Positions 8,320-25,252 of a DNA stretch of 64,000 bases are shown in pieces. Under the pieces are notes generated by a model. That model saw only the letters and a list, made by a program, of their open reading frames with translations. It had not been told where the DNA came from and made no database searches. The number at the start of each line of letters is the position of its first letter. The stretch's first letter is position 1. Origin of the DNA: an uncultured Saprospiraceae bacterium (GTDB lineage: Bacteria > Bacteroidota > Bacteroidia > Chitinophagales > Saprospiraceae); assembly GCA_964484205.1 (NCBI GenBank), contig CAZAEZ010000009.1, forward strand, positions 24,035 through 88,034. The letters run 5' to 3'. Position numbers and translations under genes: made by a program.

Positions 8320-10275
8320 ATGCTGCGATCTCTATTGCTAGTACCCGCCGTAGGCCTGCTTTTGTCGGGCAGTCTTTTTTCCCAACAACGCACTTGCGCC
8401 GCTCAGGAAATGCTACTCCAGCAACTGAAAGAAAACCCGGAACTCCAGCAAACACGCGATGCCATCGAACAACACACCAAACAATTCATCAGCAAGGGCG
8501 GCGCGACCGACCGCACGGTGGTTACCATCCCGGTGGTGGTACACGTTGTTTGGAACACCACGGCTGAAAACATCAGCGACGCGCGCATCCTGGCCCAACT
8601 CCAGGTGCTCAACGACGACTTCCGCCGCCTGAATGCCGATGCCGGCAACACGCCTTCAGGCTTTCAGGGTGTGGCTGCCGACTGCGAGGTTGAATTTTGC
8701 CTGGCCCAACGCGACCCCAGCGGCAATGCGACGACGGGCATCGTGCGCCGGCAAACCACGGTCACCTCTTTCGGTACCAGCGGCAACCCGGTTAAATTTA
8801 ACAGCTCCGGCGGCAGTAATGCCTGGCCCCGCGACCAGTACCTCAACCTCTGGGTTTGCGACCTGAGCAGCGGCCTGCTGGGCTACGCTCAATTCCCGGG
8901 CGGCGGCGCCAGCACCGACGGTGTGGTATGCGATTACCTCTACTTCGGCACAACGTCTACCGGCGCCCAACCGCCCTTCGATAAAGGCCGCACGGCCACC
9001 CACGAAGTCGGGCACTGGCTCAACTGCTACCACATCTGGGGCGACGACGGCTCCTCCTGCTCCGGCACCGACCAGGTATCCGACACCCCCAACCAGGCCG
9101 ATGAAAATTACGGCTGCCCGAGCTTCCCAACGGTCAGCTGCAGCAACGGGCCCAACGGCGACATGTTTATGAACTACATGGACTACACCGACGATGCCTG
9201 TATGAATATGTTCACCGCCGGGCAAAAAGGCCGCATGCAGGCCCTTTTCGGCGCCGGTGGCTTCCGGGCGCCACTGCTTTCCTCCCTGGGCTGTGTACCG
9301 CCCGGCGGCGGTGGCGGTTGCGGCACGCCGGGCAGCCTGGCAGCAAGCAGCATCACTCAAACAAGCGCCACAGTTAGCTGGGGCTCAGTTAGCGGAGCAT
9401 CCAACTACAACCTCCAGTACAAAGTGTCCACCTCGTCTACCTGGACCACCGTTTCGGGCATTGGCGGCACCTCGTACAACCTCACGGGCCTGAGCGCCGG
9501 CACCACCTACAACTACCAGGTGCAGGCGAATTGCAGCGGCACTACCGGCTCCTACTCCGGTGCGGCTTCGTTTACCACTAGTAGCGGCGGCGGCGGTTGC
9601 AGTGACACGTACGAGTCAAACAACAGCCGTAATCAGGCAAAAACGATCCCGGTCAACCAGGCCATTCAGGCGCTGATCGGTACGTCCAGCGACAACGACT
9701 ACTTCAAGTTCAACGTCACATCCAGCGCCCGGAACATCCGGATCGATCTGACCAACCTGCCTTACGATTATGACCTGCGCTTCTACCGCAACAGCAGCCA
9801 GGTGGCTATTTCACAAAATGCAGGCACTACGCCCGAACTGATCATTTACAACAACGCCAGCACGTCATACACGTACTACCCGCGGGTGTACGGCTACAAC
9901 GGCGCATTCAGCAGTTCGCAGTGCTATACCCTGCAGGTCAGTGTCAGCAGCAGTGCATGGCGGACCGACGGCAGCACCGACGGCCAGGTAACCACCCTGG
10001 AAGTACCGGTTGACCTGGAAGTGGACGGATTTGCCATGTGGCCCAACCCGGCGATGGAACAACTCACCGTGGATGTGCCGCTGGAGCGCGACAGCGACGT
10101 ACAGTTGACCATTTTCGACGCCGCAGGCAAAGCTGCCGTGCAGCAAAACCGGAGCATGGTGAAAGGTGAAAACCGCTTCGAACTCAGCTTGCAAACGCTG
10201 CACAACGGGGTGTACTTCGTACAAGTACGCAACGGCGACCAGACGCATACGCGGAAACTGGTGGTTCAGAAATAG
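8320..10275 (+). CDS. secreted M43 (pappalysin/cytophagalysin-like) zinc metalloprotease with FN3-like and PPC-like domains and a T9SS C-terminal sorting domain
   Basis: Signal peptide. '[16 protein letters not shown]' fits HExxHxxxxxH. '[20 protein letters not shown]...YNYQVQANC' is FN3-like. The C-terminus '[13 protein letters not shown]...[22 protein letters not shown]' is typical of Por_Secre_tail. Confidence 0.85.
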
Positions 10276-11555: not shown

Positions 11556-13736
11556 ATGAAAAACGTACTTACACTGCTGTTTTTTGCCCTGCTCACTTTT
11601 TCCACCCAAGCCCAAAACAACTACGCCGAAGCCATCCAGCAAGGCGATGCCGCCCTGCGCCGCGGGCAGTACAAAACCGCGATCAACAAATATTTTGCGG
11701 CGGAGGCGTTTGACCCGTCGAAGAAGGCGGTGGTGCAGGGGAAGGTGAACAAGGCGTTTGATGCGATTGAGGGGTTGCGGCGGCAGGCGGAAAATGCGCT
11801 GAGTCAGGTAAAAGCCGAACAGGCAAAAACCAAAGAAGCGCTTCTGCAGGCTGAGCAGGCAAAAGGGGAAGCCCTGGCTGCGCAGGCCAAAACACAGGCC
11901 GCCCTGGCCAAAGCGGACAAACTGATTAATGCTTTTTACTTTTATGAAGACAAGTTTGCGCTGGCGTATAAGAACAACCGCTTTTATTTTATTGATAAAA
12001 ACGGCGATGAAATACCCAAACTCCGCCGTTGGGAAAAAGCCGAGCAGTTTGATGACAGGGGTTTCGCCAAAGTAAGCGACCGCGATAAAATTTACCTGCT
12101 GGATACCTTGGGAAACACATACCGTATTGCCTACGATGTTCAGGACCTGGAGCCGGAAGTTACCGCATTGGACCTGTCGGGCAAACGCCTCCCGGAAATC
12201 CCAGCCGTTGTTTTTCAGCATACGCAGTTGAAAATTCTATTCTTGTCGAACAACAAGTTGGAACGCTTGCCGCCACAGATCGGGAACTTGCAGGCCCTGA
12301 TCATCCTGGACTTGAATGAGAACAAACTCACGCAACTTCCGGATGAAATTGGGAGGCTAAAAAATCTAACTGCCTTAAGGGTATCAAAAAATACCCTGAA
12401 AACGCTTCCGGCCCAAATCGGGCAATTGAATCAACTGTCGGCGCTCAATTTATGGACAAACAATCTGGAAGACTTGCCACCTGAAATCGGCAACCTGTAC
12501 AACCTGGAACACTTGGATCTGGTTAACAACCAACTTGCAAGTATTCCACCGGCAATTGGAAATCTAAAGAAACTGACTGTTTTAAGTCTGTCTTTTAATG
12601 CCCTGACCACGCTGCCACTGGCGATCGGCACCTTGAGAAACCTGAAAACCCTCGACTTAACGAGCAACAAGCTGGAATATCTGCCGGATGAAATAGGCAA
12701 TCTGACTAATTTAACCCGCTTGAGAATAAGCAACAATAAATTCAACGTGCTGCCGCCGGCAATTTGCAAGTTGAAAAAATTAGTCGTACTCGACATCGGA
12801 AACAATGCACTGACTTCCCTCCCGCCGGATATCAAGGATTTGGAAAATCTGGAGGATTTGAATATTTGGAGTAACGACATCAGCAGCCTTCCGGGAGAAA
12901 TTTGTAGTTTAAACCAATTAGTCAAGTTGCAATTAGGGGCAAATCGTCTCAATGACCTGCCGGTAGAAATCGGGAATTTGCAAAATTTGGCAGTGCTCGA
13001 CCTGTGGGGAAACCCCATCGGCTATCTACCCGATCAACTTGGCGAGTTGAACCAATTAACCCAGCTTCGCCTGGCTGTAACCTCGTTTCTGGACTTTCCC
13101 AAGGCTATATCGATTATCGGAAAACTCACCAATTTGCACAATCTGAGACTCAATATTAGGGATCTGACAGCACTCCCACCCGAAATCGTTACCCTAAAAA
13201 ATCTCACCAGCCTGGACCTGGGTAACAACAACAAAATGGATATCACACAAGTATTGCTGGCCATTAAAGACCTCGATCAAATAACTGAATTAAATCTGAT
13301 CCTCAACGACTTAACCAGCCTGCCGCCTGAAATCGGCGACTTGGAGGGCTTGGAAGAATTGTATCTCGGGCACAATAGACTCACCCACCTACCCGCTGAA
13401 CTCAGTAAGCTTAAGAAACTGAACCGCCTGGATTTGAATTACAATAAAAATCTTGACTTACCAGCTGCATTAACTATCCTCCGGACGCTACCGCAATTTA
13501 CACGTTTGGATCTGGTCAATATTGACATAACAGAGCTTCCTGCCGAACTTGGGACCTTGGAGAATCTGACCAATCTTGATCTTAGTTTCATTGAAAACCT
13601 AAACCCCGGCCAGGCTCTGCAAGTTGTAAAACAACTTCCTAACCTGAAATATCTCAACCTTCAGGGCATCCCAATCCCCGAAGCCGACCGGGATGTCTTC
13701 AAACGAAGCTTGCCCCGCTGCGAAATCAACTTCTGA
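11556..13736 (+). CDS. secreted leucine-rich-repeat protein, paralog 1 (signal peptide, TPR-like hairpin, coiled-coil, WG-like repeats, about 21 LRRs)
   Basis: ATG 11556 gives 'MKNVLTLLFFALLTFSTQAQ'. A conserved module 'NNYAEAIQQGDAALRRGQYKTAINKYFAAEAFDPSKK' follows. 'FYFIDKNGDEIPKLRRWEKAEQFDDRGFAKV' is WG-repeat-like. Then come ~23-aa LxxLxxLxLxxNxLxxLPxxIGxL repeats to the C-terminus. Confidence 0.85.
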   Translation: MKNVLTLLFFALLTFSTQAQNNYAEAIQQGDAALRRGQYKTAINKYFAAEAFDPSKKAVVQGKVNKAFDAIEGLRRQAENALSQVKAEQAKTKEALLQAEQAKGEALAAQAKTQAALAKADKLINAFYFYEDKFALAYKNNRFYFIDKNGDEIPKLRRWEKAEQFDDRGFAKVSDRDKIYLLDTLGNTYRIAYDVQDLEPEVTALDLSGKRLPEIPAVVFQHTQLKILFLSNNKLERLPPQIGNLQALIILDLNENKLTQLPDEIGRLKNLTALRVSKNTLKTLPAQIGQLNQLSALNLWTNNLEDLPPEIGNLYNLEHLDLVNNQLASIPPAIGNLKKLTVLSLSFNALTTLPLAIGTLRNLKTLDLTSNKLEYLPDEIGNLTNLTRLRISNNKFNVLPPAICKLKKLVVLDIGNNALTSLPPDIKDLENLEDLNIWSNDISSLPGEICSLNQLVKLQLGANRLNDLPVEIGNLQNLAVLDLWGNPIGYLPDQLGELNQLTQLRLAVTSFLDFPKAISIIGKLTNLHNLRLNIRDLTALPPEIVTLKNLTSLDLGNNNKMDITQVLLAIKDLDQITELNLILNDLTSLPPEIGDLEGLEELYLGHNRLTHLPAELSKLKKLNRLDLNYNKNLDLPAALTILRTLPQFTRLDLVNIDITELPAELGTLENLTNLDLSFIENLNPGQALQVVKQLPNLKYLNLQGIPIPEADRDVFKRSLPRCEINF

Positions 13737-13830
13737 AAAATCTATACACTTTAACCCGAGGCGGTTCACCAACGTTACCTTTACGTGCATTGCAATAGCT
13801 GCCAGCCCAATACAAATCACAACTTTCGCC

Positions 13831-14970
13831 ATGCCACAAACCACCACCGCACCCCTAGCCCAGGTAAAATGGGACGATGTCCTCGACACCCTCGACGCCC
13901 AACGCTGCGTGCTCTTCCTCGGTAGCGGCGCCCTGCCCGCTCCCGGCGGCGGCCCGGTTGAAGCCGCCCTCAGCCAATGGCTCGACGCCAACAACCCCGA
14001 GCACCCGCACATCCAGGTGTACAACCCCGACGGTTTTTTGCTGCTGCGCAAACAACGCTACCGCCGCCACGTGGTGGCCGGCATGAAAGATTTTTACAGC
14101 CAGCCCTTTCCCGAGGCCGAAACGCTGTACAGCCGCATCGCCCGCCTGCCGTTTTCGATGGTGGTTACGCTTACGCCCGACAATATCCTGGCCCGCACCT
14201 TCGACGTGCTGGGGCTCGATTACCAGCCCGATTTTTACTTCCGCAACCGCAAGGCCGGCGACCAGTTTGAAAAACCCAGCCGTCAAAAACCCCTGCTCTA
14301 CAACCTCCTGGGCAACATTGAAGAGCCGGAAAGCCTCGTGCTCACCCACGGCGATTTTTTCGACTACCTCGAATCCGTCTTCCGCGGCAACAGCATGAAC
14401 CCCGAACTGAAAGACGAACTCGAAAGCATGGAACGCTACATTTTTCTCGGCCTGCCCTATGAAAAATGGTATTTCCAATTGCTGCTGCGCGTGCTCTCGT
14501 TGCACTCCGATAAACTCAAAGAGATCGAACGGCTGGCCCTGAAGGAATTTGAAGACCCCCGCCTGCACAAAATTTACACCGAGGAATTCAAGATCGAATT
14601 TTTCCCGGCCAGCGCCGAGGAGTTTATCGCCGAACTCTACCGGCGCTGCGACGCCGACGGAATGCTCAAAGCCCTGCCCGCCACCGACCCCGCCGAAGCC
14701 GGCATCCCCGATGCCACTGCCGAACAGCTCGAAAACATGCTGGCCGAAGCCAAAACCGACGAGGCCATGCTCCACCTGAAAGTGTTTCTCGACCGGCGCA
14801 AACCCCGCAGTTATACGCTGGCCAATGCACTCGTGGTACTGCGCAACCGCCGCAACCTGCTCCGCCAGCGCGAACTGCGCGGCACCATCGACTCGCGCGA
14901 CGCTTCCGTGGAAAACAACCAGATCGTTGAGCAACTTTTAGCGTTGATCGGACAAGCCAAAACCCTTTGA
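13831..14970 (+). CDS. divergent SIR2-like (SIR2_2-type) domain protein with C-terminal EAD1-like helical domain
   Basis: ATG 13831 is preferred; the 13693 start overlaps the previous gene. The order 'VLFLGSGA', 'VVTLTPDNILARTF', 'LLYNLLGNIEEPESLVLTHGDFFDY', 'IFLGLPYEKWYF' matches the SIR2_2 block order. The C-terminal 'ALVVLRNRRNLLRQRELRGTIDSRDASVENNQIVEQLLALI' matches the effector-associated-domain pattern as I remember it. Confidence 0.65.
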   Translation: MPQTTTAPLAQVKWDDVLDTLDAQRCVLFLGSGALPAPGGGPVEAALSQWLDANNPEHPHIQVYNPDGFLLLRKQRYRRHVVAGMKDFYSQPFPEAETLYSRIARLPFSMVVTLTPDNILARTFDVLGLDYQPDFYFRNRKAGDQFEKPSRQKPLLYNLLGNIEEPESLVLTHGDFFDYLESVFRGNSMNPELKDELESMERYIFLGLPYEKWYFQLLLRVLSLHSDKLKEIERLALKEFEDPRLHKIYTEEFKIEFFPASAEEFIAELYRRCDADGMLKALPATDPAEAGIPDATAEQLENMLAEAKTDEAMLHLKVFLDRRKPRSYTLANALVVLRNRRNLLRQRELRGTIDSRDASVENNQIVEQLLALIGQAKTL

Positions 14971-16721
14971 ACGCCATGGAAAACGATACGAAAAAACAAT
15001 CCACTCCGTACCGCTACCCCGGCGTTACGCCGTTCACCACCGAGCAAAGCAGCATCTTCTTCGGTCGCCAGCGCGATACCGACGAGCTCTACCGCCTTAT
15101 CCGCCGCGAGCCGCTGGTGGTGCTCTACGGTAAAAGCGGTCTGGGAAAAAGCTCGCTCATCAATGCCGGCATCATCCCCCGCTGCCGGGAAGAGGGCTCC
15201 CACAGTCCGATCATTGTGCGCTTCGGAGCCTGGACGGAGGGCGAATCCACCACGCCCCTCGAAGCCACCAAAATTGCGCTCACCGGCGGCAAAAAAGCCG
15301 AAACCTTTCTCGACCGCCTGCTACCCGATGACAACGCACTCTGGGCCTGCGCCAAAAGCCGCCAACTGGCCGCCACGGATGTCCAGGCGCGTCCGCTCCT
15401 GCTGTTCGACCAGTTTGAAGAATTGTTCAGTTACCCGGAAGCGGAAATCGCCGCCTTTCTCAGCGACCTGGTCGAGTTGCTCAACACCGGCATTCCCCTG
15501 CGTTTTCGCCGCATGGCCGAATCCGACGACACACTGACCGATGCCGACGAGGAGCGCCTCGAAGCGCCGCTGGATGCCCGCATTGTGTTTGCCATCCGCT
15601 CCGACCGCATGCACCTGCTCGACCGGCTAAAAGACCACCTGCCCATGGTGCTGCGCCATACCTTTGAACTCAAGGCGCTGTCGCAAAAAGACGCTACCGA
15701 TGCCATCGTGGAACCGGCACGCGCTGCGGGTGATTTCGCTACGGAAACGTTTGAATTCAGTCCGGAAGCCCTCACGGCCCTGCTGACCTACCTCGCCGAC
15801 GAGCAGGACAAGGAAGGCCGCGTGGAAGGTATTCTGCTCCAGATGCTTTGCGAACATTACGAACGCAAGCTGGTCGGCGGCAAGGGCCTGCGCCGGCTCG
15901 AACAGCAGCACACCGGCAACCCCGACCAGGTGGTGCAGCAGTATTACGAAGAAAAAATACAGGTTTTGCCCGCCGACCAGCAGTTGCCCGCCCGCCGCCT
16001 GATCGAAGACGGCCTGGTGTCGGAAGGCGAAGCCATGCGCCTCAGCCTGCACGAGAGTTTTATCATCCAGGAGTTTGGCGCCGAAAAAACCTTGCTCGAG
16101 CAGTTGGTCGACAGCCGCCTGCTGCGCTCCGAACCCTTCCTGCGCGGGGGCTATACCTACGAGCTCTCCCACGACCGCCTGGTGCCGCCTGTGCTCAAAG
16201 CCCGCAGCCAGCGCCGCGAAGAGGAAGCCCGCCTCGAAGCTGCGCGCCTCGAAACGGAGCGCCAGCGCAAGCTTGAAGAAGCGCAGCGGCAGGCCGAGCA
16301 GGAGCGGCAGTTGCGTCAGCAAGCCCAGGCCGGCGAGCGCCGCGCGCGGCAACGCACCCGGTTGGCGGCCGGGGTGTCGGCAGTGGCGCTGGTGCTGGCG
16401 GCGGTGGCTTTTTGGAGTTATTCGGAGGCCCAGCGGAATGCGAAGTTGGCTACAGAAAAAAGTGAAGAGGCGGAGGCCAGCCGAAAGCGGACAGAGGAGG
16501 CTTTGAAGCAGTCTAACCGGTTTTTAGCCAAGTCGGATAAACTCAATTTTGAAAATCTTGAAGGCCGGGTCCGTGTTATTTTGAATGGACGACTTTGCCC
16601 CCCCGAAAAATGGCTCATCGAAATGCAGGAAATTACCGGACGGCATCCCGATAGCCTTCAATTAAAAATACGATTGCAGGAACTTCAGACACTTCGTAAT
16701 CAAAACCCGGATTGCAGATGA
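14967..16721 (+). CDS. nSTAND-type P-loop NTPase with C-terminal coiled-coil, single TM helix and 101-aa tail (no repeat sensor)
   Basis: 'PYRYPGVTPFTTEQSSIFFGRQRDTDEL'. Walker A 'LYGKSGLGKSSLINAGIIP' (nt 15129-15155). Walker B-like 'LLLFDQFEELF'. An R/E/Q-rich coiled-coil. TM helix 'LAAGVSAVALVLAAVAFW' (~16362-16418). TTG 14967 overlaps the upstream TGA (14968-14970); an alternative ATG is at 14976. Confidence 0.8.
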   Translation: MNAMENDTKKQSTPYRYPGVTPFTTEQSSIFFGRQRDTDELYRLIRREPLVVLYGKSGLGKSSLINAGIIPRCREEGSHSPIIVRFGAWTEGESTTPLEATKIALTGGKKAETFLDRLLPDDNALWACAKSRQLAATDVQARPLLLFDQFEELFSYPEAEIAAFLSDLVELLNTGIPLRFRRMAESDDTLTDADEERLEAPLDARIVFAIRSDRMHLLDRLKDHLPMVLRHTFELKALSQKDATDAIVEPARAAGDFATETFEFSPEALTALLTYLADEQDKEGRVEGILLQMLCEHYERKLVGGKGLRRLEQQHTGNPDQVVQQYYEEKIQVLPADQQLPARRLIEDGLVSEGEAMRLSLHESFIIQEFGAEKTLLEQLVDSRLLRSEPFLRGGYTYELSHDRLVPPVLKARSQRREEEARLEAARLETERQRKLEEAQRQAEQERQLRQQAQAGERRARQRTRLAAGVSAVALVLAAVAFWSYSEAQRNAKLATEKSEEAEASRKRTEEALKQSNRFLAKSDKLNFENLEGRVRVILNGRLCPPEKWLIEMQEITGRHPDSLQLKIRLQELQTLRNQNPDCR

Positions 16722-16804
16722 AACTGTTTTCTGTTCTATTGATCGTTATTGGAATTTCCGGGTTGGCCCAGGCCCAAAACAACTACACCCTGGTTATCCT
16801 GTAG
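16718..16804 (+). pseudogene. orphan 28-codon signal-peptide remnant of the LRR paralog family
   Basis: ATG 16718 overlaps the NTPase stop (ATGA). It translates as 'MKLFSVLLIVIGISGLAQAQNNYT' then 'LVIL' and a stop. The 24-nt stretch cccaggcccaaaacaactacaccc is identical to the LRR3 5' region, and homology ends abruptly after it. Confidence 0.55.
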
Positions 16805-16898
16805 AGCAGCCCTATCCTTCGGTCGAAGGGGAAAAGCCGGCAACGTCTCCCAAATTTCAGAATCGGATTCTACCAAAACACCCCTAACTTTACAGGAC

Positions 16899-17204
16899 AT
16901 GAAAAATCCACCAACAGCCCAAGACTTCAGCAACTATCTTTTCTGGGATGTAGAAAAGAGCAAAATCGACTTTGACAAAAGCAAAGCCTACGTCATAGAG
17001 CGGGTGCTATCGCATGGCATGTTGACGGATTGGGATATGCTTAAAATAGTCTATGGCAAAGAAATTATTCGGGAGGTGGTTTTAAATTTACGTCATCTAG
17101 ACAAATATGCCCTGCATTTCTGCGCGGCCTATTTTGACGTACCACTCGAAAATTTCAGATGCTACAACTACGCGCAATCGAACCCCGTACACTGGGACTT
17201 CTAA
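16899..17204 (+). CDS. small conserved partner (putative antitoxin) of the AbiEii-type nucleotidyltransferase
   Basis: 101 aa from ATG 16899 ('MKNPPTAQDFSNYLFWDVEKSKIDFDKSKAYVIERVLSHGMLTDWDMLK'). It overlaps the downstream toxin gene by 46 nt. The role is assigned from position and recollection of similar Bacteroidota pairs. Confidence 0.55.
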   Translation: MKNPPTAQDFSNYLFWDVEKSKIDFDKSKAYVIERVLSHGMLTDWDMLKIVYGKEIIREVVLNLRHLDKYALHFCAAYFDVPLENFRCYNYAQSNPVHWDF

Positions 17205-17773
17205 AGGCATTGATGCAAGAGTCCGTCTTAGCTGATAATTTTTTAGTTGGCGGTACGGCATTGGCACTTCAATTGGGACACCGACTTTCTGTTGATCTGG
17301 ATTTATTTACCCATACGCCTTTTAGTGCTGAGGACCTGCTTGAAAAATTGCGCGAAAAATTTACGGTCCAACCACTTACAGTAACCAACACGATTTTTAT
17401 TGCCGTCATCGAAGGCATCAAGGTGGACTGCGTTCGGTTTAAGTATCCATTTGCTTTTCCAATTTTGGATACCGACGGTATCCGTTTTGCTGACATCCGG
17501 GATATTGCGGCAATGAAATTAGACGCTGTCGCTAAACGCGGAACCAAGAAAGATTTTATTGACATGTATTACTTGTTTGAGCGCTTTTCGCCTGCTCAAA
17601 TCCTGGAATGGTATGAGCAGATGTTTCAGCATTCGACAAGCTTGCATGTTATTCGAAGCCTGACCTACTTTGAGGATGCAGAGCAAACCGAAATGCCCGT
17701 CGTATTCGATAAAAAAACAACATGGGCCGCAGTTAAAAGTCGGATGGTCAACGTTGTCAGAAATAATTTTTAG
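17159..17773 (+). CDS. nucleotidyltransferase AbiEii/AbiGii toxin-family protein
   Basis: 'LVGGTALALQLGHRLSVDLDLF' (NTase G-x / DxD region) and 'DIAAMKLDAVAKRGTKKDFIDMYYL' are typical of the AbiEii (DUF1814) family. Confidence 0.75.
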   Translation: MLQLRAIEPRTLGLLKALMQESVLADNFLVGGTALALQLGHRLSVDLDLFTHTPFSAEDLLEKLREKFTVQPLTVTNTIFIAVIEGIKVDCVRFKYPFAFPILDTDGIRFADIRDIAAMKLDAVAKRGTKKDFIDMYYLFERFSPAQILEWYEQMFQHSTSLHVIRSLTYFEDAEQTEMPVVFDKKTTWAAVKSRMVNVVRNNF

Positions 17774-17777
17774 CAAC

Positions 17778-19301
17778 ATGAAGAAACTAACTGCCATGCT
17801 TTTTCTCGCCGTCCTGGCTTTCGCTGCCCAGGCCCAAAACAACTACTCCCAAGCCATCCAGCAAGGCGATGCCGCCCTGCGCCGTGGGGAATACAAAACG
17901 GCGATAAAAAAATACTTCGCGGCAGAGGCGTTCGATCCGTCGAAAAAGGATGTGGTGCAGCGGAAGGTGGAGGTTGCGTTTGACAAGATTGAGGCGCTGC
18001 GGGTGGAAGCGGAGCGGGCAAAAACAGAGGCTAAAGTTGCCTTGCAAAAGGCAGATAAACTCATAAATGCATTTTACTTCTATGCCGACCGGTTCGCATT
18101 GGCATTTAAGGCTGGTCAGTTTTACTTCATTGACAAAAATGGCGATGAAATTGAAATGCTTGGTCGTTGGGGAAAGGCAGAACAATTTGACTATGACGGG
18201 TTTGCAAAAGTTAGTGACAACAATACAACCTATTTGCTCGATACACTGGGCAATAAATTTCCGGCAGCATTTGATGTAAAAGATTTAAAGTCTGGAATAC
18301 TGGCATTGGATTTATCACACAAGGAATTAACAGAATTCCCCAAAGAAGTTTTTCAGCATAAACAGCTAAAGATTTTGCGATTGGGATTATGCAAATTGAC
18401 GCAACTGCCGGCGGAAATAGGGGTAATGAAAAGTTTGATTCGTTTAGATTTGGGAGGTAATAAATTGACGAGTTTGCCCCCGGCAATCGGACAATTGGAA
18501 AATTTAATCACGTTGCAGTTGAACTATAACGCCTTGACTTCTTTGCCCAACGAAATAGGGGGTTTAAAAAACTTAAGCACCCTGGATCTAAGAAATAATC
18601 AACTGCAACGTCTCCCCGAAGGATTTAAAGCGTTGGGGAAATTGCGTGCACTGGATTTGAGTATCAACCAGCTATCCAGTTTTCCAGTCGAAATATTAGG
18701 GTTAAAAAATTTACTCTTATTGGATTTGAGCGTCACCAAACTGCGTGATCTGCCCACCCAAATCAACAACTTGGAAAACTTATCATCGTTGGATTTAGGT
18801 TCTAATGCATTAACCAGCTTACCGGCTGAAATTGGAGGTCTGAAAAATTTACGCACTCTGGACCTATTCGAAAACCAATTGGGCAGCCTGCCGGCTCAAA
18901 TTGGGTTATTATCAAACCTGACATACTTAGGGTTAAATAGGAACCAGCTGATGTCTCTGCCTGCCGATATCGGGAAACTAAAAAATTTAACGGAACTGGA
19001 TTTGTTTGGAAATCCATTGAAAACATTGCCGCCACAAATTGGCGCATTAAAAAACCTGCGGAATCTGGATTTGGGGGGGTGTAAGCTTAGCCGTATTCCA
19101 CCGGAGATCGGAGGGGCAACAAACCTGGTCAGTCTAAATTTAATTTTTAATGAATTAACCAGCCTTCCTGAACAAATAGGGAACCTTAAAAATCTAAAGG
19201 AATTGTTTCTGAATGAAAACTATTTCCCGGATACAGAACTGGCAAAAATCAAGCGCCGCTTACCGGCCTGTGATATTAGTAGCTACCCGTTTACAGAGTA
19301 G
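17778..19301 (+). CDS. secreted leucine-rich-repeat protein, paralog 2
   Basis: ATG 17778 lies 4 nt after the AbiEii stop and gives 'MKKLTAMLFLAVLAFAAQAQ'. It has the same N-terminal module, WG-like repeats and about 14 LRRs. It ends 'AKIKRRLPACDISSYPFTE'. Confidence 0.85.
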   Translation: MKKLTAMLFLAVLAFAAQAQNNYSQAIQQGDAALRRGEYKTAIKKYFAAEAFDPSKKDVVQRKVEVAFDKIEALRVEAERAKTEAKVALQKADKLINAFYFYADRFALAFKAGQFYFIDKNGDEIEMLGRWGKAEQFDYDGFAKVSDNNTTYLLDTLGNKFPAAFDVKDLKSGILALDLSHKELTEFPKEVFQHKQLKILRLGLCKLTQLPAEIGVMKSLIRLDLGGNKLTSLPPAIGQLENLITLQLNYNALTSLPNEIGGLKNLSTLDLRNNQLQRLPEGFKALGKLRALDLSINQLSSFPVEILGLKNLLLLDLSVTKLRDLPTQINNLENLSSLDLGSNALTSLPAEIGGLKNLRTLDLFENQLGSLPAQIGLLSNLTYLGLNRNQLMSLPADIGKLKNLTELDLFGNPLKTLPPQIGALKNLRNLDLGGCKLSRIPPEIGGATNLVSLNLIFNELTSLPEQIGNLKNLKELFLNENYFPDTELAKIKRRLPACDISSYPFTE

Positions 19302-19368
19302 CGTAGCTCCACCGCTCTGAATTGAAAAACAGACACCAATGGAAACAACCTGGAAATTCGAACCTCCT

Positions 19369-20769
19369 ATGAAATTAATATCCTGTCTCCTGTTTTTATT
19401 TTTCCTGCCGCTCGCTGCCCAGGCCCAAAACAACTACACCCAGGCCATCCAGCAAGGCGATGCCGCCCTGCGCCGGGGTGAATACAAAACGGCGATAAAA
19501 AAATACTTCGCGGCGGAGGCCTTTGATCCCTCGAAAAAGGATGTGGTGCAGCGGAAAGTGGAAGTGGCGTTTGACAAGATTGAGGCGCTGCGGGTGGAAG
19601 CGGAGCGGGCATTTAAGCAGGTGAAGGCAGAGCAGGAGAAAACGCAGGCGGCTTTGGACAGGGCCGACAAACTGGTGGAGGCCTTTTATTTCTATGCCGG
19701 GCGCTTTGCGCTGGCTTACAACGATTACCACTACTATTTCATAGACAAAAATGGAAACCCGATAGAAAAACTGGGCTATTGGGATCAGGCCGGACAATTT
19801 ACCAATGAAGGCTTTGCCCGTGTTTCACCCTATGATGTGGACACCATTGTAACACGGGATACAACTACGTATGAAGAGCGCGTACAAATCCTACGGAATT
19901 CATCCTTAGACTATTTTTTAATAGACACGACAGGTAAAAAATACCTGGTTTCCACCGATGAGCCGGAGAAAGAGCCCGGCATTGCTGCGCTGGGTTTTAG
20001 TTTTAATCAGTTGAAGGAGTTTCCGGAAAAAATATTCAATTATCCCGCGCTTGAAATATTGGAGATCAATGGCAATGAAATCGAAAAAATTCCACCACAA
20101 ATTGGAACACTCAAACAGCTCCGGTTTTTATACCTGAGTCAAAACAACATAAACTCCCTGCCACCTGAAATTGGCGAATTAATCGATCTGGAACGCCTGT
20201 ATTTAAAAGGTAATGATTTGACAACCCTTCCTATAGAACTGGGCCGGTTAACCAAGTTAAAAATATTGGATTTAACGAATAACCCTGTACACGAAAGTGA
20301 AGTTGAGAAAATCCGGAAATTACTGCCTGACTGCCTGATTCGGGGCGGGTATTCGTTCGGAGCAATTTCCAGTCTGTATTGGAGTTCGAAGCGCTTTCGG
20401 GAAGCCTATGATTATATGAAAAAAGATCTCGAGGAAAAGGAGTATGCGTCTGATAACTGGTACGATTGGGAAACCTGGAGCTGGCGGGCAATGCATGCCG
20501 CGAAATATGAAGAAGCAATCCTGTATGCTCAAAAAGCCCTCGAGGTTAACTTTTTGGCAGAAGGTGTGCTCTCCTATCTTGCCCTCGGCTATCTGCTAAA
20601 CAACCAATGGCCTGAAGCCGAAAAAATTTATTTAAAATGGAAAGGGCGCTTTTGTCAGGGTACTTTTAAATACTGCGACAGGATTTTTTTGGAAGACATC
20701 GCCAAACTCGAAGCCGCCAACATCACCCACCCCGATTTTGAAAAAGTGCGGCAGCTATTCAAAAAATAG
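19369..20769 (+). CDS. secreted leucine-rich-repeat protein, paralog 3 (few LRRs plus W/Y-rich TPR-like C-terminal domain)
   Basis: 'MKLISCLLFLFFLPLAAQAQ' from ATG 19369 (alternative ATG 19339). The N-terminal module is identical in protein sequence to paralog 2 over ~54 aa. About 4 LRRs follow, then 'YEEAILYAQKALEVNFLAEGVLSYLALGYLLNNQWPEAEKIYLKW'. Confidence 0.8.
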   Translation: MKLISCLLFLFFLPLAAQAQNNYTQAIQQGDAALRRGEYKTAIKKYFAAEAFDPSKKDVVQRKVEVAFDKIEALRVEAERAFKQVKAEQEKTQAALDRADKLVEAFYFYAGRFALAYNDYHYYFIDKNGNPIEKLGYWDQAGQFTNEGFARVSPYDVDTIVTRDTTTYEERVQILRNSSLDYFLIDTTGKKYLVSTDEPEKEPGIAALGFSFNQLKEFPEKIFNYPALEILEINGNEIEKIPPQIGTLKQLRFLYLSQNNINSLPPEIGELIDLERLYLKGNDLTTLPIELGRLTKLKILDLTNNPVHESEVEKIRKLLPDCLIRGGYSFGAISSLYWSSKRFREAYDYMKKDLEEKEYASDNWYDWETWSWRAMHAAKYEEAILYAQKALEVNFLAEGVLSYLALGYLLNNQWPEAEKIYLKWKGRFCQGTFKYCDRIFLEDIAKLEAANITHPDFEKVRQLFKK

Positions 20770-21476: not shown

Positions 21477-21842
21477 ATGAAAGGCCTCGCCACCATTGCC
21501 CTGCTCCTGCTTTCCAACGTGTTCATGACCTTTGCCTGGTACGGGCACCTGCGTTTTCAACACCTGTCTTTTTTTCAAAAAACCGGCCTCTTCGGCATCG
21601 TGCTGGCCTCCTGGCTGATCGCTTTTTTGGAGTATTGTTTCATGGTGCCGGCCAACCGCATGGGCTACCTCGGCAACGGCGGCCCCTTCACACTCGTCCA
21701 GCTCAAGGTGATCCAGGAAGTGATCACCCTGCTGGTTTTCACGCTGTTCACCCTTGTTTTTTTCAAAAATGAGCCCCTGAAATGGAACCATTTCGTCGGC
21801 TTTATCTTCCTCGTGTTGGCCGTTTATTTTATCCGGAAATAA
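21477..21842 (+). CDS. DMT-superfamily small membrane protein (DUF486-like)
   Basis: 'NVFMTFAWYGHLRF', 'FLEYCFMVPANRMGY' and 'QLKVIQEVITLLVF'. Four predicted TM helices. ATG 21477 is preferred over TTG 21468. Confidence 0.75.
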   Translation: MKGLATIALLLLSNVFMTFAWYGHLRFQHLSFFQKTGLFGIVLASWLIAFLEYCFMVPANRMGYLGNGGPFTLVQLKVIQEVITLLVFTLFTLVFFKNEPLKWNHFVGFIFLVLAVYFIRK

Positions 21843-21868
21843 CGAACTTAGCCGCAAACAACCCAAAC

Positions 21869-24800
21869 ATGCCACCGTCCACCGACCTGAACATCACCAT
21901 CATCTCCGCCGGCGCCGGCAGCGGCAAAACCTACACGCTCACCCAACGCATGGTGGCGCTGATGCAATCGGGCGTCCGCGCGCGGGGGATCATGGCTACC
22001 ACCTTCACCCAAAAAGCCGCCGCCGAACTACAGGAGCGCGTGCGCGCCCGCTTGCTCGAAACCGGCATGACGGAGGCCGCCAACGACCTCGGCAATGCGC
22101 TTATCGGCACGGTGCACAGCATCGGCGTGCGGCTGCTCCAGCGCTTCGCCTTCGAACTCGGCGTATCGCCACTGGTGGAGATCATCGCCGACGGCGACCA
22201 GCAGCGCATGTTCAACGAATCGCTCGCGCAGGTCCTCCACGAAGACCGCATCGCCACCATCAACCAACTGGCCGACCGGCTCGGGCTCACCAAAAAAACC
22301 GACCGCGACCCCTACGACTGGCGCCGCGACATCCGCGACATCACCGACGTGGCCCGCGCCAACAACTTCGAGCGGGCGGTTTTGGAAAAAAGCAAAAAAC
22401 TGTCCTGGGAAACTTTCGAGCAAATGCTCGGCCCCGCCGGTACCGACTCGGCCCAAACCTGGCACAACCGCCTGCTGAGCCATATCGACCAAACCGTCGC
22501 CGCCCTCGAAGCCAACGAAGCCGACGAAACCAAAACGACCCGCAACGCCATCGAAGACCTCCGCAACCTGCAAAACCAACTCAAGTGGCGTGGCGAACTC
22601 TACTGGCACGAATGGGTCAAGATCAGCAAGTTGTCGGTGGCCGTCAAAAGCCGCGACCTGTTCGAAGAACTCAAGGAGTTTGCCCGCAGCCACGACCGGC
22701 ACCCGCAGTTCCGGAGCGATATCCGCAATTTTATCGAGCACATCTTCGACTGCGCCATTGATGCCCTGACCGAGTATGAGCATTACAAGAAAAAACGCGG
22801 CCTGATCGACTACACCGACATGGAAACCTACGTGAGCCGCCTGCTCCGCATGGAACCCGTGCGGGCTGCCCTGCGCGGTGAACTGGACCTCCTGCTCGTC
22901 GATGAATTTCAGGACACCTCCCCCATCCAACTCGATATTTTCCTGCAACTCAGCCGCCTGGCCCGCCACTCCATCTGGGTCGGCGACCCCAAGCAAAGCA
23001 TCTACGGTTTTCGCGGCGCCGAACCCGCACTCATGCAGGCCATCATCCAGGCTACCGGCGGCGTGCAGCCCGAAAACGTGCTGGGCAAATCGTGGCGCAG
23101 CCGCCCGGACATCGTGTACACCGTGAACGCCATTTTTACCCGGGCATTCCCGGACTTGCCGGTGGAGCAGGTGGCTTTGGAACCGGCAAACCCCACCCCC
23201 GGCCCCTCCCCCCGGGGGGAGGGGGGCTCGCTCTCATCTTCTGCTGATGTTTCTGTGTCCGGTAGTCAACAAGCTTCCTTGTTTACGGAAGAACCACAAA
23301 AAAATCCAACCCAATCCACCGACCAAAACTCTGCCAGAGGGCAAGCCCCCCTCCCCCCGGGGGGAGGGGCCGGGGGTGGGGTCCTCCACTGGCACTTCCA
23401 AAACGAACTCGACCTCCGAAAAGTCCCCGGCAGCCCCTGGATGGAAAACTGTATCGCCGCCCGCATCCGGGTGCTGCTCGACCGGCAGACCCCCGTGTGG
23501 AACAAAAAACGCGACACCAGCCGTCCGGCCCGACCCGGCGACATCGCGGTGCTTTGCCGGACCAACTACGGCTGCGACGCTATGGCCGAGGCGCTCCACC
23601 GCGCGGGCCTGAAAGCCGCCATTGCACGGGCGGGCCTGCTCGAAACCCGGGAGGGCAAACTGGCGTTGGCCTGCCTCAAATACCTGCTTAATCCCTCCGA
23701 TGCCCTGAGCACCGCGGAAATTCTTACCCTCACCGGCGCCCTTAGCCTGGAGGAACTCGTCGATAGCCGGATCGACTACCTGGTTACACTCCAGGAGGGC
23801 TGGGACCCCGGCCGCTGGGCCACGGAGCACGATTTTATCCGCCGCCTCATGGACCTCCGGCCGCGCACCGCCGACCTGAGTGCCTCCGAAATTCTCAACC
23901 TGGCACTCGACGAACTGGACCTCCGCCGCCTGGCTGCCCGCTTCGGCAATGTGGCCCAGCGGCTCGACAACCTCGACCGCCTGCGCTACTACGCCCTCGA
24001 ATACGAATCGGCCTGCCAGCGCTTGCACGCTGCGGCCTCCCTGGGCGGTTTTTTGCTTTGGCTCGACGAACTGGCCCGCAGCGGGCAAGACCTTCAGGGC
24101 AGCGGCGAAAGCCCCGACGCTGTGCAGGTGCTCACCTACCACAAAAGCAAGGGGCTGGAGTTTCCCATCGCCATTTGCCACAACCTGAACAACACCCTCC
24201 GGGAAAAAGTGTGGGGCGTCAACCTCGTCGCCGAACGGGACGAACCCGATCTGGAGGATATTCTCGGCCACCGCTGGTTGCGCTTTTGGGTAAATCCGTA
24301 CAGCGACCAGTGGCGCGGCACCCCGCTCCAGGAAACCCTGGAAAGCAGCGATGTTTGGGCGGAAGCCTCCAAACAGGCCCGGGAAGAGGAAGCCCGCCTG
24401 CTCTACGTGGGCCTTACCCGCGCCCGCGATTACCTCGTTTTCCCAACCAATGTCAAAGGCACGCCCTGGCTCAACCGCGTGTTCAACGCCGGCAATGGCG
24501 AGATCAACACCCTCGAACCCGATAGCGACGAGACGCCGTTTATCTGGAAAAACCAGGTGGTGTACTGCGAAAACGAGCCGCTGTTCATGCCCGTGGATTT
24601 TCCGGAAGACCAATCGGTGGAAACCACCGTGCCCTTCCATCCGCCGCATGCCGGCAAACACCACCTCGACCGCCTGCCGTACCGCATCGACCTGCTGAAC
24701 GAATGGCCGCCCGGGTTTGATTACAACCTCGAAGAACCACAGGCTTTTTCCAACTGGCTGGAATTTCGCGGCGAGTACACCCCGGCGATCAACAAGGCCG

Positions 24801-25252
24801 TGCAAACCTTCCTGGCTACCGATGATCCGCAACTCGCCCCGGAACAACGCCGGGCACTTGCCGGGCTGCAATTGCAGCTGCGCGGCGTGACGGCGGCTTT
24901 GGATGCGGAAATGCTGGTCCGGCATTCCACGGCATTCCGGCAATTTGCCGAAAAACGGTTTGCACCGCAGCGTTGGTTGCCCAAGTTCCCGTTTGAAGGT
25001 CCGGCAGGCCGGCGCTGGCTAAAAATGGAAGTTGATTTAATGTTGGAAAATGCCGATACGGTTTACCTGCTTACCTTCGTACATTTTGCCGAAGGCATGA
25101 AAAAATGGAAGGAACAGGCGCGCTACGGCGCTCAAATGAGCGGTTGGCTGAGTCGGCTGGCACCGCAGGCTTTTCCGGGGAAGATGGTGGAATACTGGCT
25201 GGTTTATGCTTTGGAAGGGAGTGTGAGCCGAATTTCTACCGGCATGCAATAA
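21869..25252 (+). CDS. UvrD/Rep/AddA-like SF1 DNA helicase, long form
   Basis: Motifs seen: 'SAGAGSGKTYTL' (I), 'LLVDEFQDTS' (II), 'VGDPKQSIYGFRGA' (III), 'VLTYHKSKGLEFP' (V), 'LLYVGLTRARDYLVF' (VI). ATG 21869 is preferred because the earlier start overlaps the previous gene. Confidence 0.9.
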   Translation: MPPSTDLNITIISAGAGSGKTYTLTQRMVALMQSGVRARGIMATTFTQKAAAELQERVRARLLETGMTEAANDLGNALIGTVHSIGVRLLQRFAFELGVSPLVEIIADGDQQRMFNESLAQVLHEDRIATINQLADRLGLTKKTDRDPYDWRRDIRDITDVARANNFERAVLEKSKKLSWETFEQMLGPAGTDSAQTWHNRLLSHIDQTVAALEANEADETKTTRNAIEDLRNLQNQLKWRGELYWHEWVKISKLSVAVKSRDLFEELKEFARSHDRHPQFRSDIRNFIEHIFDCAIDALTEYEHYKKKRGLIDYTDMETYVSRLLRMEPVRAALRGELDLLLVDEFQDTSPIQLDIFLQLSRLARHSIWVGDPKQSIYGFRGAEPALMQAIIQATGGVQPENVLGKSWRSRPDIVYTVNAIFTRAFPDLPVEQVALEPANPTPGPSPRGEGGSLSSSADVSVSGSQQASLFTEEPQKNPTQSTDQNSARGQAPLPPGGGAGGGVLHWHFQNELDLRKVPGSPWMENCIAARIRVLLDRQTPVWNKKRDTSRPARPGDIAVLCRTNYGCDAMAEALHRAGLKAAIARAGLLETREGKLALACLKYLLNPSDALSTAEILTLTGALSLEELVDSRIDYLVTLQEGWDPGRWATEHDFIRRLMDLRPRTADLSASEILNLALDELDLRRLAARFGNVAQRLDNLDRLRYYALEYESACQRLHAAASLGGFLLWLDELARSGQDLQGSGESPDAVQVLTYHKSKGLEFPIAICHNLNNTLREKVWGVNLVAERDEPDLEDILGHRWLRFWVNPYSDQWRGTPLQETLESSDVWAEASKQAREEEARLLYVGLTRARDYLVFPTNVKGTPWLNRVFNAGNGEINTLEPDSDETPFIWKNQVVYCENEPLFMPVDFPEDQSVETTVPFHPPHAGKHHLDRLPYRIDLLNEWPPGFDYNLEEPQAFSNWLEFRGEYTPAINKAVQTFLATDDPQLAPEQRRALAGLQLQLRGVTAALDAEMLVRHSTAFRQFAEKRFAPQRWLPKFPFEGPAGRRWLKMEVDLMLENADTVYLLTFVHFAEGMKKWKEQARYGAQMSGWLSRLAPQAFPGKMVEYWLVYALEGSVSRISTGMQ
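23191..23381. repeat. 191-bp palindromic (MITE-like) element embedded in frame in the helicase CDS
   Basis: Perfect 36-bp terminal inverted repeats: ccccacccccggcccctccccccggggggagggggg (23191-23226) and its exact reverse complement (23346-23381). It translates as low-complexity 'PTPGPSPRGEGG...APLPPGGGAGGG'. Confidence 0.85.

Follow-up and report, generated by a model that had tools for sequence, protein, structure and literature searches.

The stretch of DNA considered here (hereafter the window, 64 kb from an uncultured Saprospiraceae bacterium) holds, at positions 11556-20769, a locus which probably encodes one instance of a transmembrane, modular type of STAND signalling found in Bacteroidota, with leucine-rich repeat (LRR) sensors that are exported and encoded in trans. 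All genes between 11.5 and 20.8 kb lie on the + strand, and the seven genes and one gene remnant listed in a preliminary description of this DNA are all present at the coordinates given there: an LRR protein gene (LRR1), a gene for a SIR2-like protein with an EAD11 domain, an nSTAND1 NTPase gene, the remnant, a DUF6922 gene, an AbiEii nucleotidyltransferase gene, and two further LRR protein genes (LRR2 and LRR3). The junctions are as first reported, with 94 nt between LRR1 and the SIR2-like gene, 4 nt between AbiEii and LRR2, 67 nt between LRR2 and LRR3, and an ATGA common to the NTPase stop and the remnant start. The two other overlaps reported depend on the start codon: the SIR2-like and NTPase genes overlap only if the latter begins at the TTG at 14967, and are separated by a 5-nt gap with the ATG at 14976 of database gene calls, while the 46-nt overlap of the DUF6922/AbiEii pair holds only for the ATG at 17159, and is lost with the public gene call starting at 17213.

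The NTPase (14967/14976-16721) matches Pfam nSTAND1 over residues 17-441 (135.6 bits, gathering score 27.1; E 4.6e-39), and its Walker A (GKSGLGKSS) and Walker B (LLLFDQFEE) motifs are invariant across the alignment A1. The public record holds the 581-aa ATG form, and the 584-aa TTG-start form has no exact database match. The AlphaFold2 (AF2) model (pLDDT 87.7) displays a core of nucleotide-binding, helical and winged-helix domains (NBD-HD-WHD), for which Foldseek retrieves Orc1/Cdc6, sso1545, Apaf-1, NLRP, ZAR1, NLRC4, MalT, CED-4, and Avs4. Pfam and the fold search thus agree on the nSTAND-type assignment, which had been proposed from the P-loop and Walker B signatures. The part predicted to be cytoplasmic (14976..16361), consisting of the core and a long coiled-coil helix, is followed by a single transmembrane (TM) helix (16362..16418, residues 466-484, LAAGVSAVALVLAAVAFWS, Kyte-Doolittle mean 2.14) and by a tail (16419..16721) of 100 aa, first counted as 101, made of a coiled coil and a TPR-like hairpin with two Cys. 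In the model, this corresponds to two long helices (residues 400-461 and 470-537), the second of which contains the TM segment and is set off from the first by a break of low confidence, and to a hairpin (544-576). As was noted earlier, the NTPase carries no C-terminal repeat sensor; homologues carry one (LRR, WD40, TPR, or FGE) after the TM helix of the same polypeptide. A reading of the tail as a cryptic EAD11 was rejected, as it gives no Pfam or HMM (hidden Markov model) match.

An alignment-based scan of species-representative genomes shows the family to be large, with at least 556 related loci. The best 80, which are not a random sample, were analysed using our own open reading frame (ORF) calls, phmmer, and HMMs, with gene orders counted over 82 non-redundant loci. 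Of 82 NTPase ORFs, 73 have a hydrophobic helix after the core, and most of the others are cut by contig ends. The number of Lys and Arg residues per 15 aa averages 5.66 before this helix versus 2.74 after it, and is greater before it in 65 of the 73. This bias, together with the requirement of a P-loop NTPase for the cytoplasm, fits an N-in/C-out topology, and the positive-inside rule puts the tail outside the cytoplasm, a placement on which the preliminary description had made its proposal depend. Two conserved Cys are found in tails of the window's class, class A (AGGCP...NxNC, at about 16590-16715 in the window), and all sensors combining WG and LRR modules, fused or split, close with a conserved LPxCxI motif holding a single Cys. 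Disulfide bonds, perhaps between molecules, would be in keeping with a periplasmic location.

The protein encoded immediately upstream (13831-14970, 379 aa) matches Pfam SIR2_2 (29.4 bits, cut-off 24.5; E 9.7e-7) and EAD11 (59.1 bits, E 4.4e-16). Its AF2 model (pLDDT 85.8) finds the SIR2 domains of KomC, ThsA, DSR2, and AVAST5 as its top Foldseek matches (E about 1e-8, target-normalised TM-score about 0.6). The SIR2 fold anticipated for this gene is therefore confirmed by Pfam and Foldseek, but the canonical catalytic Asn and His are missing throughout the family. The catalytic N112 of ThsA aligns to T115, in a column with 36 Thr, 14 Ser, 7 Leu, and 4 Asn among 70 members; H152 of ThsA aligns to L160 (36 Leu, 23 Phe, 5 Met, and no His in 70), and the GAG NAD-binding loop is degenerate (G-P-E). 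Without the catalytic Asn and His, the protein is probably not an NADase effector. In 80 of 85 loci, the NTPase gene is immediately preceded by a SIR2-like ORF. SIR2_2 is matched by all 70 upstream proteins; 54 of these end in EAD11 and 10 in TIR, and one has EAD7. The nSTAND1, SIR2-like, and EAD11 parts are fused in a single protein in one locus (L049), and extra EAD11 proteins adjoin the system in several others (EAD11-caspase, EAD11-CHAT, EAD11-trypsin, and EAD11-TIR). The occurrence of EAD11 on the SIR2-like protein and on adjacent effectors elsewhere fits the principle of effector-associated domains (EADs) put forward by Kaur et al. (PMC8195603), by which an EAD is present on a core component, here the SIR2-like protein and 54 of its 70 relatives. 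The SIR2-like domain would most likely be a constant NTPase-binding adaptor, with its C-terminal EAD11 recruiting effectors. HMM searches find no other EAD11 or SIR2-like gene elsewhere in the 64-kb window.

The exported sensor paralogues, only three of which occur in the window, are LRR1 (11556-13736, 726 aa; Pfam LRR_14 1.2e-61, LRR_8 9e-49; N-module HMM 8e-32), LRR2 (17778-19301, 507 aa; LRR_14 1.3e-40; N-module HMM 1.5e-31), and LRR3 (19369-20769, 466 aa; LRR_4 3.4e-16; N-module HMM 2.3e-31). The N-module, a stretch of about 75 aa that follows the signal peptide, is a helical hairpin (GDxAxxxGxYxxAIxKYxAAxxxxP) with a coiled coil. It is of class A in all three proteins, as is the NTPase tail. 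In LRR1, the signal peptide (AQA/Q) and the N-module, with its TPR-like hairpin and coiled coil, are followed by a WG-like beta module and an LRR solenoid. The N-module of LRR2 is likewise followed by a WG-like module and LRRs, and that of LRR3 by a short array of LRRs and, at the C-terminus, a TPR-like domain. The earlier statement that the LRR arrays sit on separate proteins with signal peptides is upheld by Pfam LRR matches of up to 1e-61 and by n-h-c signal peptides read from the sequence. These signal peptides begin with MK, contain a hydrophobic core, and end in AQA/QNNY, with Gln at +1 and no Cys. Gln at +1 of the signal peptidase cleavage site is the Q-rule of Bacteroidetes. LRR1-3 give no Pfam match to Por_Secre_tail, the C-terminal domain of the type IX secretion system (T9SS), and a lipoprotein or T9SS fate was rejected, since they have neither a lipobox nor this domain. 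They are likely exported by Sec and retained in the envelope, as far as their N- and C-termini indicate.

The 5' 209 nt of LRR2 and LRR3 (17812-18020 and 19403-19611) are 93% identical, with about 49% identity over the remaining protein, which suggests a recent gene conversion of the N-module. The C-terminus of LRR3 (20360-20769, residues 330-466) is a TPR-like domain of about 135 aa without Pfam match, and it is matched in L007, L010, and L048, in other exported sensors and at one fused NTPase C-terminus. The GC content at third codon positions (GC3) is 0.71-0.75 in the SIR2-like, NTPase, and flanking genes of the window, 0.47-0.57 in the three LRR genes, and 0.44-0.51 in the AbiE pair, and this contrast within one co-directional block is repeated in two relatives, L001 and L002.

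The remnant (16718-16804) of a fourth sensor paralogue consists of 28 codons, translated as MKLFSVLLIVIGISGLAQAQNNYTLVIL and a stop. It retains the signal peptide up to AQAQNNYT, as in the three LRR proteins, and diverges thereafter. A 34-nt segment at 11604, 16766, 17826, and 19417, spanning the signal-peptide cleavage region, is the sole stretch common to the remnant and its paralogues. The gene at the canonical sensor position, where 29 other loci hold an N-module gene, is thus a dead remnant in the window strain.

Fused and split sensor arrangements

The NTPases of the 82 loci fall into long or fused forms, defined by a C-terminal extension of at least 230 aa (24 loci), short forms with a downstream N-module gene (29), short forms without a detected one (15), and unassessable forms (14). 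In the long NTPases, the TM helix is followed by an FGE-sulfatase (C-type-lectin-like) domain, a WD40 propeller, TPR, or WG-LRR, and a few of the 24 lack an identified sensor domain. Single-polypeptide STAND-TM-coiled-coil-WG-LRR proteins, which the preliminary description had suggested looking for, do exist (P0026, P0029, P0059, P0085, and P0120; L073, L078, and L082). In P0026 and P0029, the alignment with LRR1 begins at the coiled coil (ADKLINAFYFY) and runs through to the C-terminal LPxCxI motif, so that LRR1 is homologous to the post-TM part of these fused NTPases.

Short NTPases end about 80-170 residues past the TM helix, with tails in which a TPR-like hairpin comes after a coiled coil. 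The N-module gene is offset from them by -65 to +75 nt on the downstream side, with frequent 4-nt overlaps, in distant genera included. Beyond the N-module, the trans sensors carry WD40, WG (16 repeats), LRR, FGE, or TPR domains, which are the same sensor types as in the fused forms, whereas the N-module itself is found in no fused NTPase of the 82 loci. The 15 short NTPases without a detected downstream N-module include that of the window, that of the insertion-sequence-disrupted L005, and those of L031 and L036, in which the sensor gene lies upstream of the SIR2-like gene; in several others, signal-peptide proteins with divergent N-termini are encoded downstream. Overall, SIR2-like/NTPase pairs do neighbour the LRR/N-module family, with 29 of 44 assessable short NTPases having such a gene downstream, and two more upstream. 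LRR1 stands upstream of the SIR2-like gene, like the sensor genes of L031 and L036, and LRR2 is 65% identical to the gene directly 3' of the NTPase in L002.

When the NTPases are ranked by core similarity, the nearest neighbour is of the other form in 23 of 68 cases, at up to 69% identity (L083 versus L071). This interleaving of the two forms implies repeated events of fission, fusion, or cassette replacement. The hosts are largely filamentous or gliding Bacteroidota. Two loci from Acidobacteriota (L070 and L072) represent a differently wired branch of the family, in which a short NTPase with two hydrophobic segments is followed by a cytoplasmic EAD11-TIR protein, with no exported sensor. A homologue search with the N-module (residues 1-141 of LRR2) returned 29 short fragments only, which are uninformative on architecture.

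Both the tails and the N-modules can be sorted into two classes by short motifs, HPDS (class A) or IDSxN (class B) in the tails, and KYFAAEAFDP (class A) or YNAAxxCxP (class B) in the N-modules. Five A/A and 14 B/B pairings are counted, without phylogenetic correction, and no mixed one. Class A occurs at core identities to the window of 100, 93, 86, 56, 43, and 37%, interleaved with class B, and the covariation of tail and N-module is therefore independent of core similarity.

Strain comparison and the AbiE pair

The closest NTPases are found in Lewinellaceae and Saprospiraceae metagenome-assembled genomes. The locus L001/L005, from a Lewinellaceae genome of this kind (85% identity), is syntenic with the window. 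In L001, the gene order is a T9SS M43 peptidase and a hydrolase, both shared with the window, then two LRR genes, SIR2-EAD11, nSTAND1, an IS200 transposase, and LRR gene fragments; L002, a 78% relative, has LRR, SIR2-EAD11, nSTAND1, LRR, LRR. The protein identity between the window and L001 amounts to 93-94% for flanking genes, 94.5% for the SIR2-like protein, and 93.5% for the NTPase core, but only 47.9% for the tail. At the nucleotide level, there is a breakpoint near 16400, at the boundary between the TM helix and the tail, with an identity of about 92% before it and 54-63% beyond. Similarly, LRR1 and its ortholog are 88-90% identical at the nucleotide level in the N-terminal part, versus 56-68% in the LRR repeat region. 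A conserved core next to a divergent tail and divergent LRRs indicates that the extracytoplasmic parts were exchanged or diversified, while the cytoplasmic machinery was kept. Palindromes (GACCTCGGAGAGGTC) are repeated in intergenic DNA 3' of the NTPase in L001 (11740-12000) and L002 (4520-4610), and those of L001 adjoin the IS200-type Y1 transposase gene.

Downstream of the remnant, the DUF6922 gene (16899-17204; Pfam 1.3e-17) and the AbiEii nucleotidyltransferase gene (17159/17213-17773; Pfam 4.4e-17, PADLOC AbiEii 1e-9) form a putative type IV toxin-antitoxin/abortive-infection module (16899..17773). This had been described as a toxin pair, but it is DUF6922 plus AbiEii and not two toxins. 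It resembles AbiE systems in having an AbiEii-family nucleotidyltransferase beside a small upstream gene, and differs from them in that this partner is DUF6922 rather than an AbiEi-type antitoxin, no AbiEi profile match being found. The pair is absent from L001, L002, and the other surveyed loci, phmmer matches being confined to the window and to L004, its duplicate. This points to a strain-specific insertion that took the place of the downstream sensor gene. Since it is missing from the orthologous loci at 85% and 78% identity, its proposed membership of the STAND system was rejected. DUF6922/AbiEii is an independent module unrelated to that system, and its insertion appears, from the position of the remnant, to have destroyed the downstream sensor gene.

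Proposed mechanism and rival explanations

The nSTAND1 family was defined in STAND-FGS conflict systems by Kaur, Iyer, Burroughs & Aravind (eLife 2021, PMC8195603), where the FGS/NPCBM lectin sensors are taken to be intracellular. Their source data list nSTAND1+TM+BetaPropeller (278 string occurrences), +TPR (22), and +FGS (4), as well as a two-gene arrangement, 'TIR+DrHyd-> nSTAND1+TM+BetaPropeller'. The same study defined EAD11, which it lists on LRR-AP-GTPase-COR proteins. The system of the window shares with these the NTPase family and the general scheme of an upstream effector or EAD gene next to an NTPase with a C-terminal sensor, and fused forms with a TM helix, as in its relatives, are among those they list. 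It differs in that their main text describes no extracytoplasmic topology, that nSTAND1+TM+LRR has 0 occurrences, that no SIR2-nSTAND1 link is made, and that no trans-encoded exported sensor with a dedicated N-module is found there. The fused nSTAND1+TM+propeller form is thus already catalogued, but the split, LRR-bearing, SIR2-like-linked form is not. Full-text literature searches also retrieved no TM-STAND protein with separate exported sensors, in agreement with the earlier suggestion that this split topology is undescribed. In the literature searched, the sensors of characterised bacterial STAND systems (Avs, bNACHT) recognise phage proteins in the cytoplasm, and Doré et al. consider that some lectin targets diversified by diversity-generating retroelements are possibly periplasmic. 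Avs5/AVAST5, ThsA, DSR2, and KomC have the SIR2 fold in common with the present system, as well as the pairing of a SIR2 domain with a STAND NTPase. Nevertheless, they are soluble, cytoplasmic proteins in which SIR2 is fused to the sensor or STAND part and keeps the catalytic Asn and His, whereas here the SIR2-like protein is separate and lacks both residues, the STAND protein is membrane-anchored, and the sensor lies outside the cytoplasm.

The layout also recalls eukaryotic receptors. Toll-like receptors (TLRs) and plant LRR receptor-like proteins likewise have an ectodomain of LRRs, one TM helix, and signalling in the cytoplasm through death-fold-like or TIR domains, and NOD-like receptors (NLRs) share the STAND and LRR parts. 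The proposed recruitment of caspase or TIR effectors by an adaptor recalls the Myddosome or the inflammasome. The differences are that the cytoplasmic module is a STAND NTPase and not a TIR or kinase domain, and that the LRR is on a separate polypeptide. An NLR in the strict sense joins NACHT or NB-ARC and LRR in one cytoplasmic protein, while the NTPase here is nSTAND1 and the LRRs belong to exported proteins. A TLR-like layout made from NLR parts is an analogy of layout only, and does not imply common descent. The split NLR-like machine proposed in the preliminary description is supported in part. Its core, a cytoplasmic STAND NTPase and SIR2-like partner coupled across the inner membrane to exported LRR sensors, came through the three tests set for it (profile homology, gene neighbourhood, and tail topology), but the AbiEii pair has no place in it, and the SIR2-like protein is probably not its NADase.

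Computation establishes the domain identities, topology signals, fusion and fission, gene-order conservation, covariation, and mosaic evolution described above. We infer from them a mechanism in four parts. The sensor would be an extracytoplasmic repeat or lectin domain, here the three Sec-exported LRR paralogues; the transducer would be the nSTAND1 NTPase, with its core in the cytoplasm, a coiled coil running into the single TM helix, and a tail of about 100 aa in the periplasm; the SIR2-like-EAD11 protein would sit on the cytoplasmic side; and EAD11-tagged effectors, encoded next to the system in other genomes, would be the fourth part. The sensor would act in cis, fused after the TM helix, in many relatives, and in trans in the lineage of the window. 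That LRR1-3 are the trans-acting sensors of the window NTPase is likely, and can be held with some confidence. The chances are about even that they dock via the N-module, non-covalently, on the NTPase tail, as the class covariation would suggest. Binding of a ligand in the periplasm, presumably from an invader or competitor, would then be transmitted by the TM-flanking helices and make the STAND core oligomerise at the membrane in an ATP-dependent manner. The oligomer would cluster the SIR2-like-EAD11 partner, whose EAD11 would recruit an EAD11-tagged caspase, CHAT, trypsin, or TIR, known from other genomes. By analogy, ligand binding may, at slightly less than even probability, lead through such oligomerisation and EAD11-mediated recruitment to cell death or arrest. 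The STAND system is very probably a conflict or cell-death system. It is a more tentative step to see in the family an extracytoplasmic pattern-recognition pathway of Bacteroidota, with interchangeable LRR/WD40/WG/FGE/TPR sensors, a TPR-like two-piece connector, a membrane STAND switch, a dead SIR2-like/EAD11 adaptor, and EAD11 executioners, in which several paralogous sensors would share a single transducer, and strains would trade cassettes of sensor plus tail.

If true, this finding, obtained by computation alone, would show bacteria to have a close parallel to the TLR-type and receptor/helper-NLR layouts, and a counterpart of TLR/Myddosome or receptor-plus-helper-NLR signalling. The sensor would stand outside the cytoplasm and apart from the switch, extending bacterial NLR-like signalling to envelope threats, and the system would be a genetically modular model for passing ligand binding across a membrane to a STAND oligomerisation switch. 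It seems that a SIR2 fold has taken on the role of an adaptor; the short hairpin/coiled-coil module is seen only where the receptor is split, and swapping the tail-plus-sensor cassette could rewire the system.

Several observations weigh against this interpretation. Signal peptides and TM helices were called by rules (simple hydrophobicity) and not by SignalP or DeepTMHMM. The profile-profile comparison (hhalign) between the tail and N-module hairpins is weak (P 3e-4, probability 39%); tail and sensor are encoded side by side, so that their covariation could reflect co-transfer and not binding; and the three closest class-A loci are non-independent. EAD11 is not found on the NTPase itself by Pfam or HMM search, and there is no second EAD11 protein within the 64-kb window. 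PADLOC-DB v2 recognises AbiEii as the sole system, gives no Avs match and no match for the LRR proteins, and provides marginal matches only for the STAND and SIR2-like proteins (ThsA 0.0021, mad8 4e-4). In GC3, the LRR genes fall below the SIR2-like and NTPase genes. Of the directly coupled sensor gene, the window has only the 28-codon remnant left, and the tail is replaced, so that the local copy may be rewired or decaying. Lastly, a role in immunity is suggested by the domain vocabulary alone.

Among the rival explanations, a coincidental adjacency of the LRR genes, for instance as envelope adhesins or internalin-like proteins of a variable island, is very improbable. Their deviating GC3, their copy number and content, which differ between close strains, and the merely generic LRR similarity given by NCBIfam and Pfam are what unrelated neighbours would show. 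Nevertheless, the fused NTPase-TM-WG-LRR proteins are homologous over the entire post-TM region, the same N-module gene lies directly 3' of 29 short NTPases in distant genera, often with a 4-nt overlap, and is missing from fused forms, the tail and N-module classes covary, and the remnant shares its ATGA with the NTPase stop. It is rather unlikely that the family is real and the window copy non-functional or decaying, its coupled sensor having been lost to the AbiE insertion and the other LRR genes being leftovers. The remnant at the canonical position, the tail replaced relative to the sister strain, and the L001 locus with its IS200 transposase and LRR gene fragments all suit such decay; against it, the SIR2-like, NTPase, LRR1, LRR2, and LRR3 ORFs are intact, the tail and the three N-modules are nominally compatible, all being of class A, the sensor gene upstream of the SIR2-like gene is the sole sensor in L031 and L036, and the SIR2-like gene and NTPase core are conserved as much as the flanking housekeeping genes.

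Two further alternatives bear on output and function. The SIR2-like protein might itself be the effector, making the system a membrane-anchored relative of the SIR2-STAND defences (Avs5/AVAST5, DSR, ThsA-like) that depletes NAD+, with EAD11 aiding assembly only. This is unlikely, as the position of N112 is Thr, Ser, or Leu in 57 of 70 members and Asn in 4, that of H152 holds Leu, Phe, or Met without a single His, G-P-E stands in place of the GAG loop, and the replacement of EAD11 by TIR in 10 of 70, together with the EAD11-proteases or TIR proteins adjoining the system elsewhere, makes the output seem delegated. It would nevertheless account for the best fold matches being defence NADases (KomC, ThsA, DSR2, and AVAST5), for the retention of SIR2_2 in 70 of 70 members, and for a window devoid of a separate effector, and the conserved polar residues specific to the family (D117, N158, S168, T172, and D175) could form a different active site. 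A function other than anti-phage defence, namely envelope surveillance or self/non-self recognition (kin recognition, programmed cell death among filamentous Saprospiria, or a reaction to predators or to the toxins of competitors), is only somewhat unlikely. The periplasmic sensors, as opposed to the cytoplasmic recognition of phage proteins by Avs and bNACHT, the largely filamentous or gliding hosts, the tie between nSTAND1/EAD systems and a multicellular habit drawn by Kaur et al. (PMC8195603, PMC7159879), and the absence of a PADLOC match for the system favour such a role, while the TIR/caspase/CHAT/trypsin vocabulary, the cassette-like diversification of the sensors, and the neighbouring AbiE pair are typical traits of counter-invader systems. 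The data do not separate anti-phage immunity from another envelope-level conflict or self/non-self sensing. For the locus as a whole, a transmembrane STAND system with exported LRR sensors is retained as the preferred reading.

Further features of the window

NCBIfam yields generic LRR matches below threshold only, and no match for the SIR2-like or NTPase proteins. A promoter and terminator scan of the window performed no better than on shuffled sequence; it relied on the sigma-70 consensus, which is unsuited to Bacteroidota. Upstream of the locus, the ORF at 8320-10275 has, at 94% identity, an ortholog in L001 with Pfam Peptidase_M43, fn3, and Por_Secre_tail (T9SS) domains, and this orthology supports the Bacteroidota origin of the window.

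Downstream, an ORF at 21782-25252 encodes a helicase-like, UvrD/AddA-like protein of 1156 aa. It contains a 46-nt inverted repeat at 23190-23382, whose arms are 96% complementary and lie 101 nt apart, each arm holding the palindrome CCCTCCCCCCGGGGGGAGGG. The repeat is translated as PTPGPSPRGEGG on both strands, and looks like a miniature inverted-repeat transposable element (MITE) or repetitive extragenic palindromic (REP)-like element inserted in the coding region.

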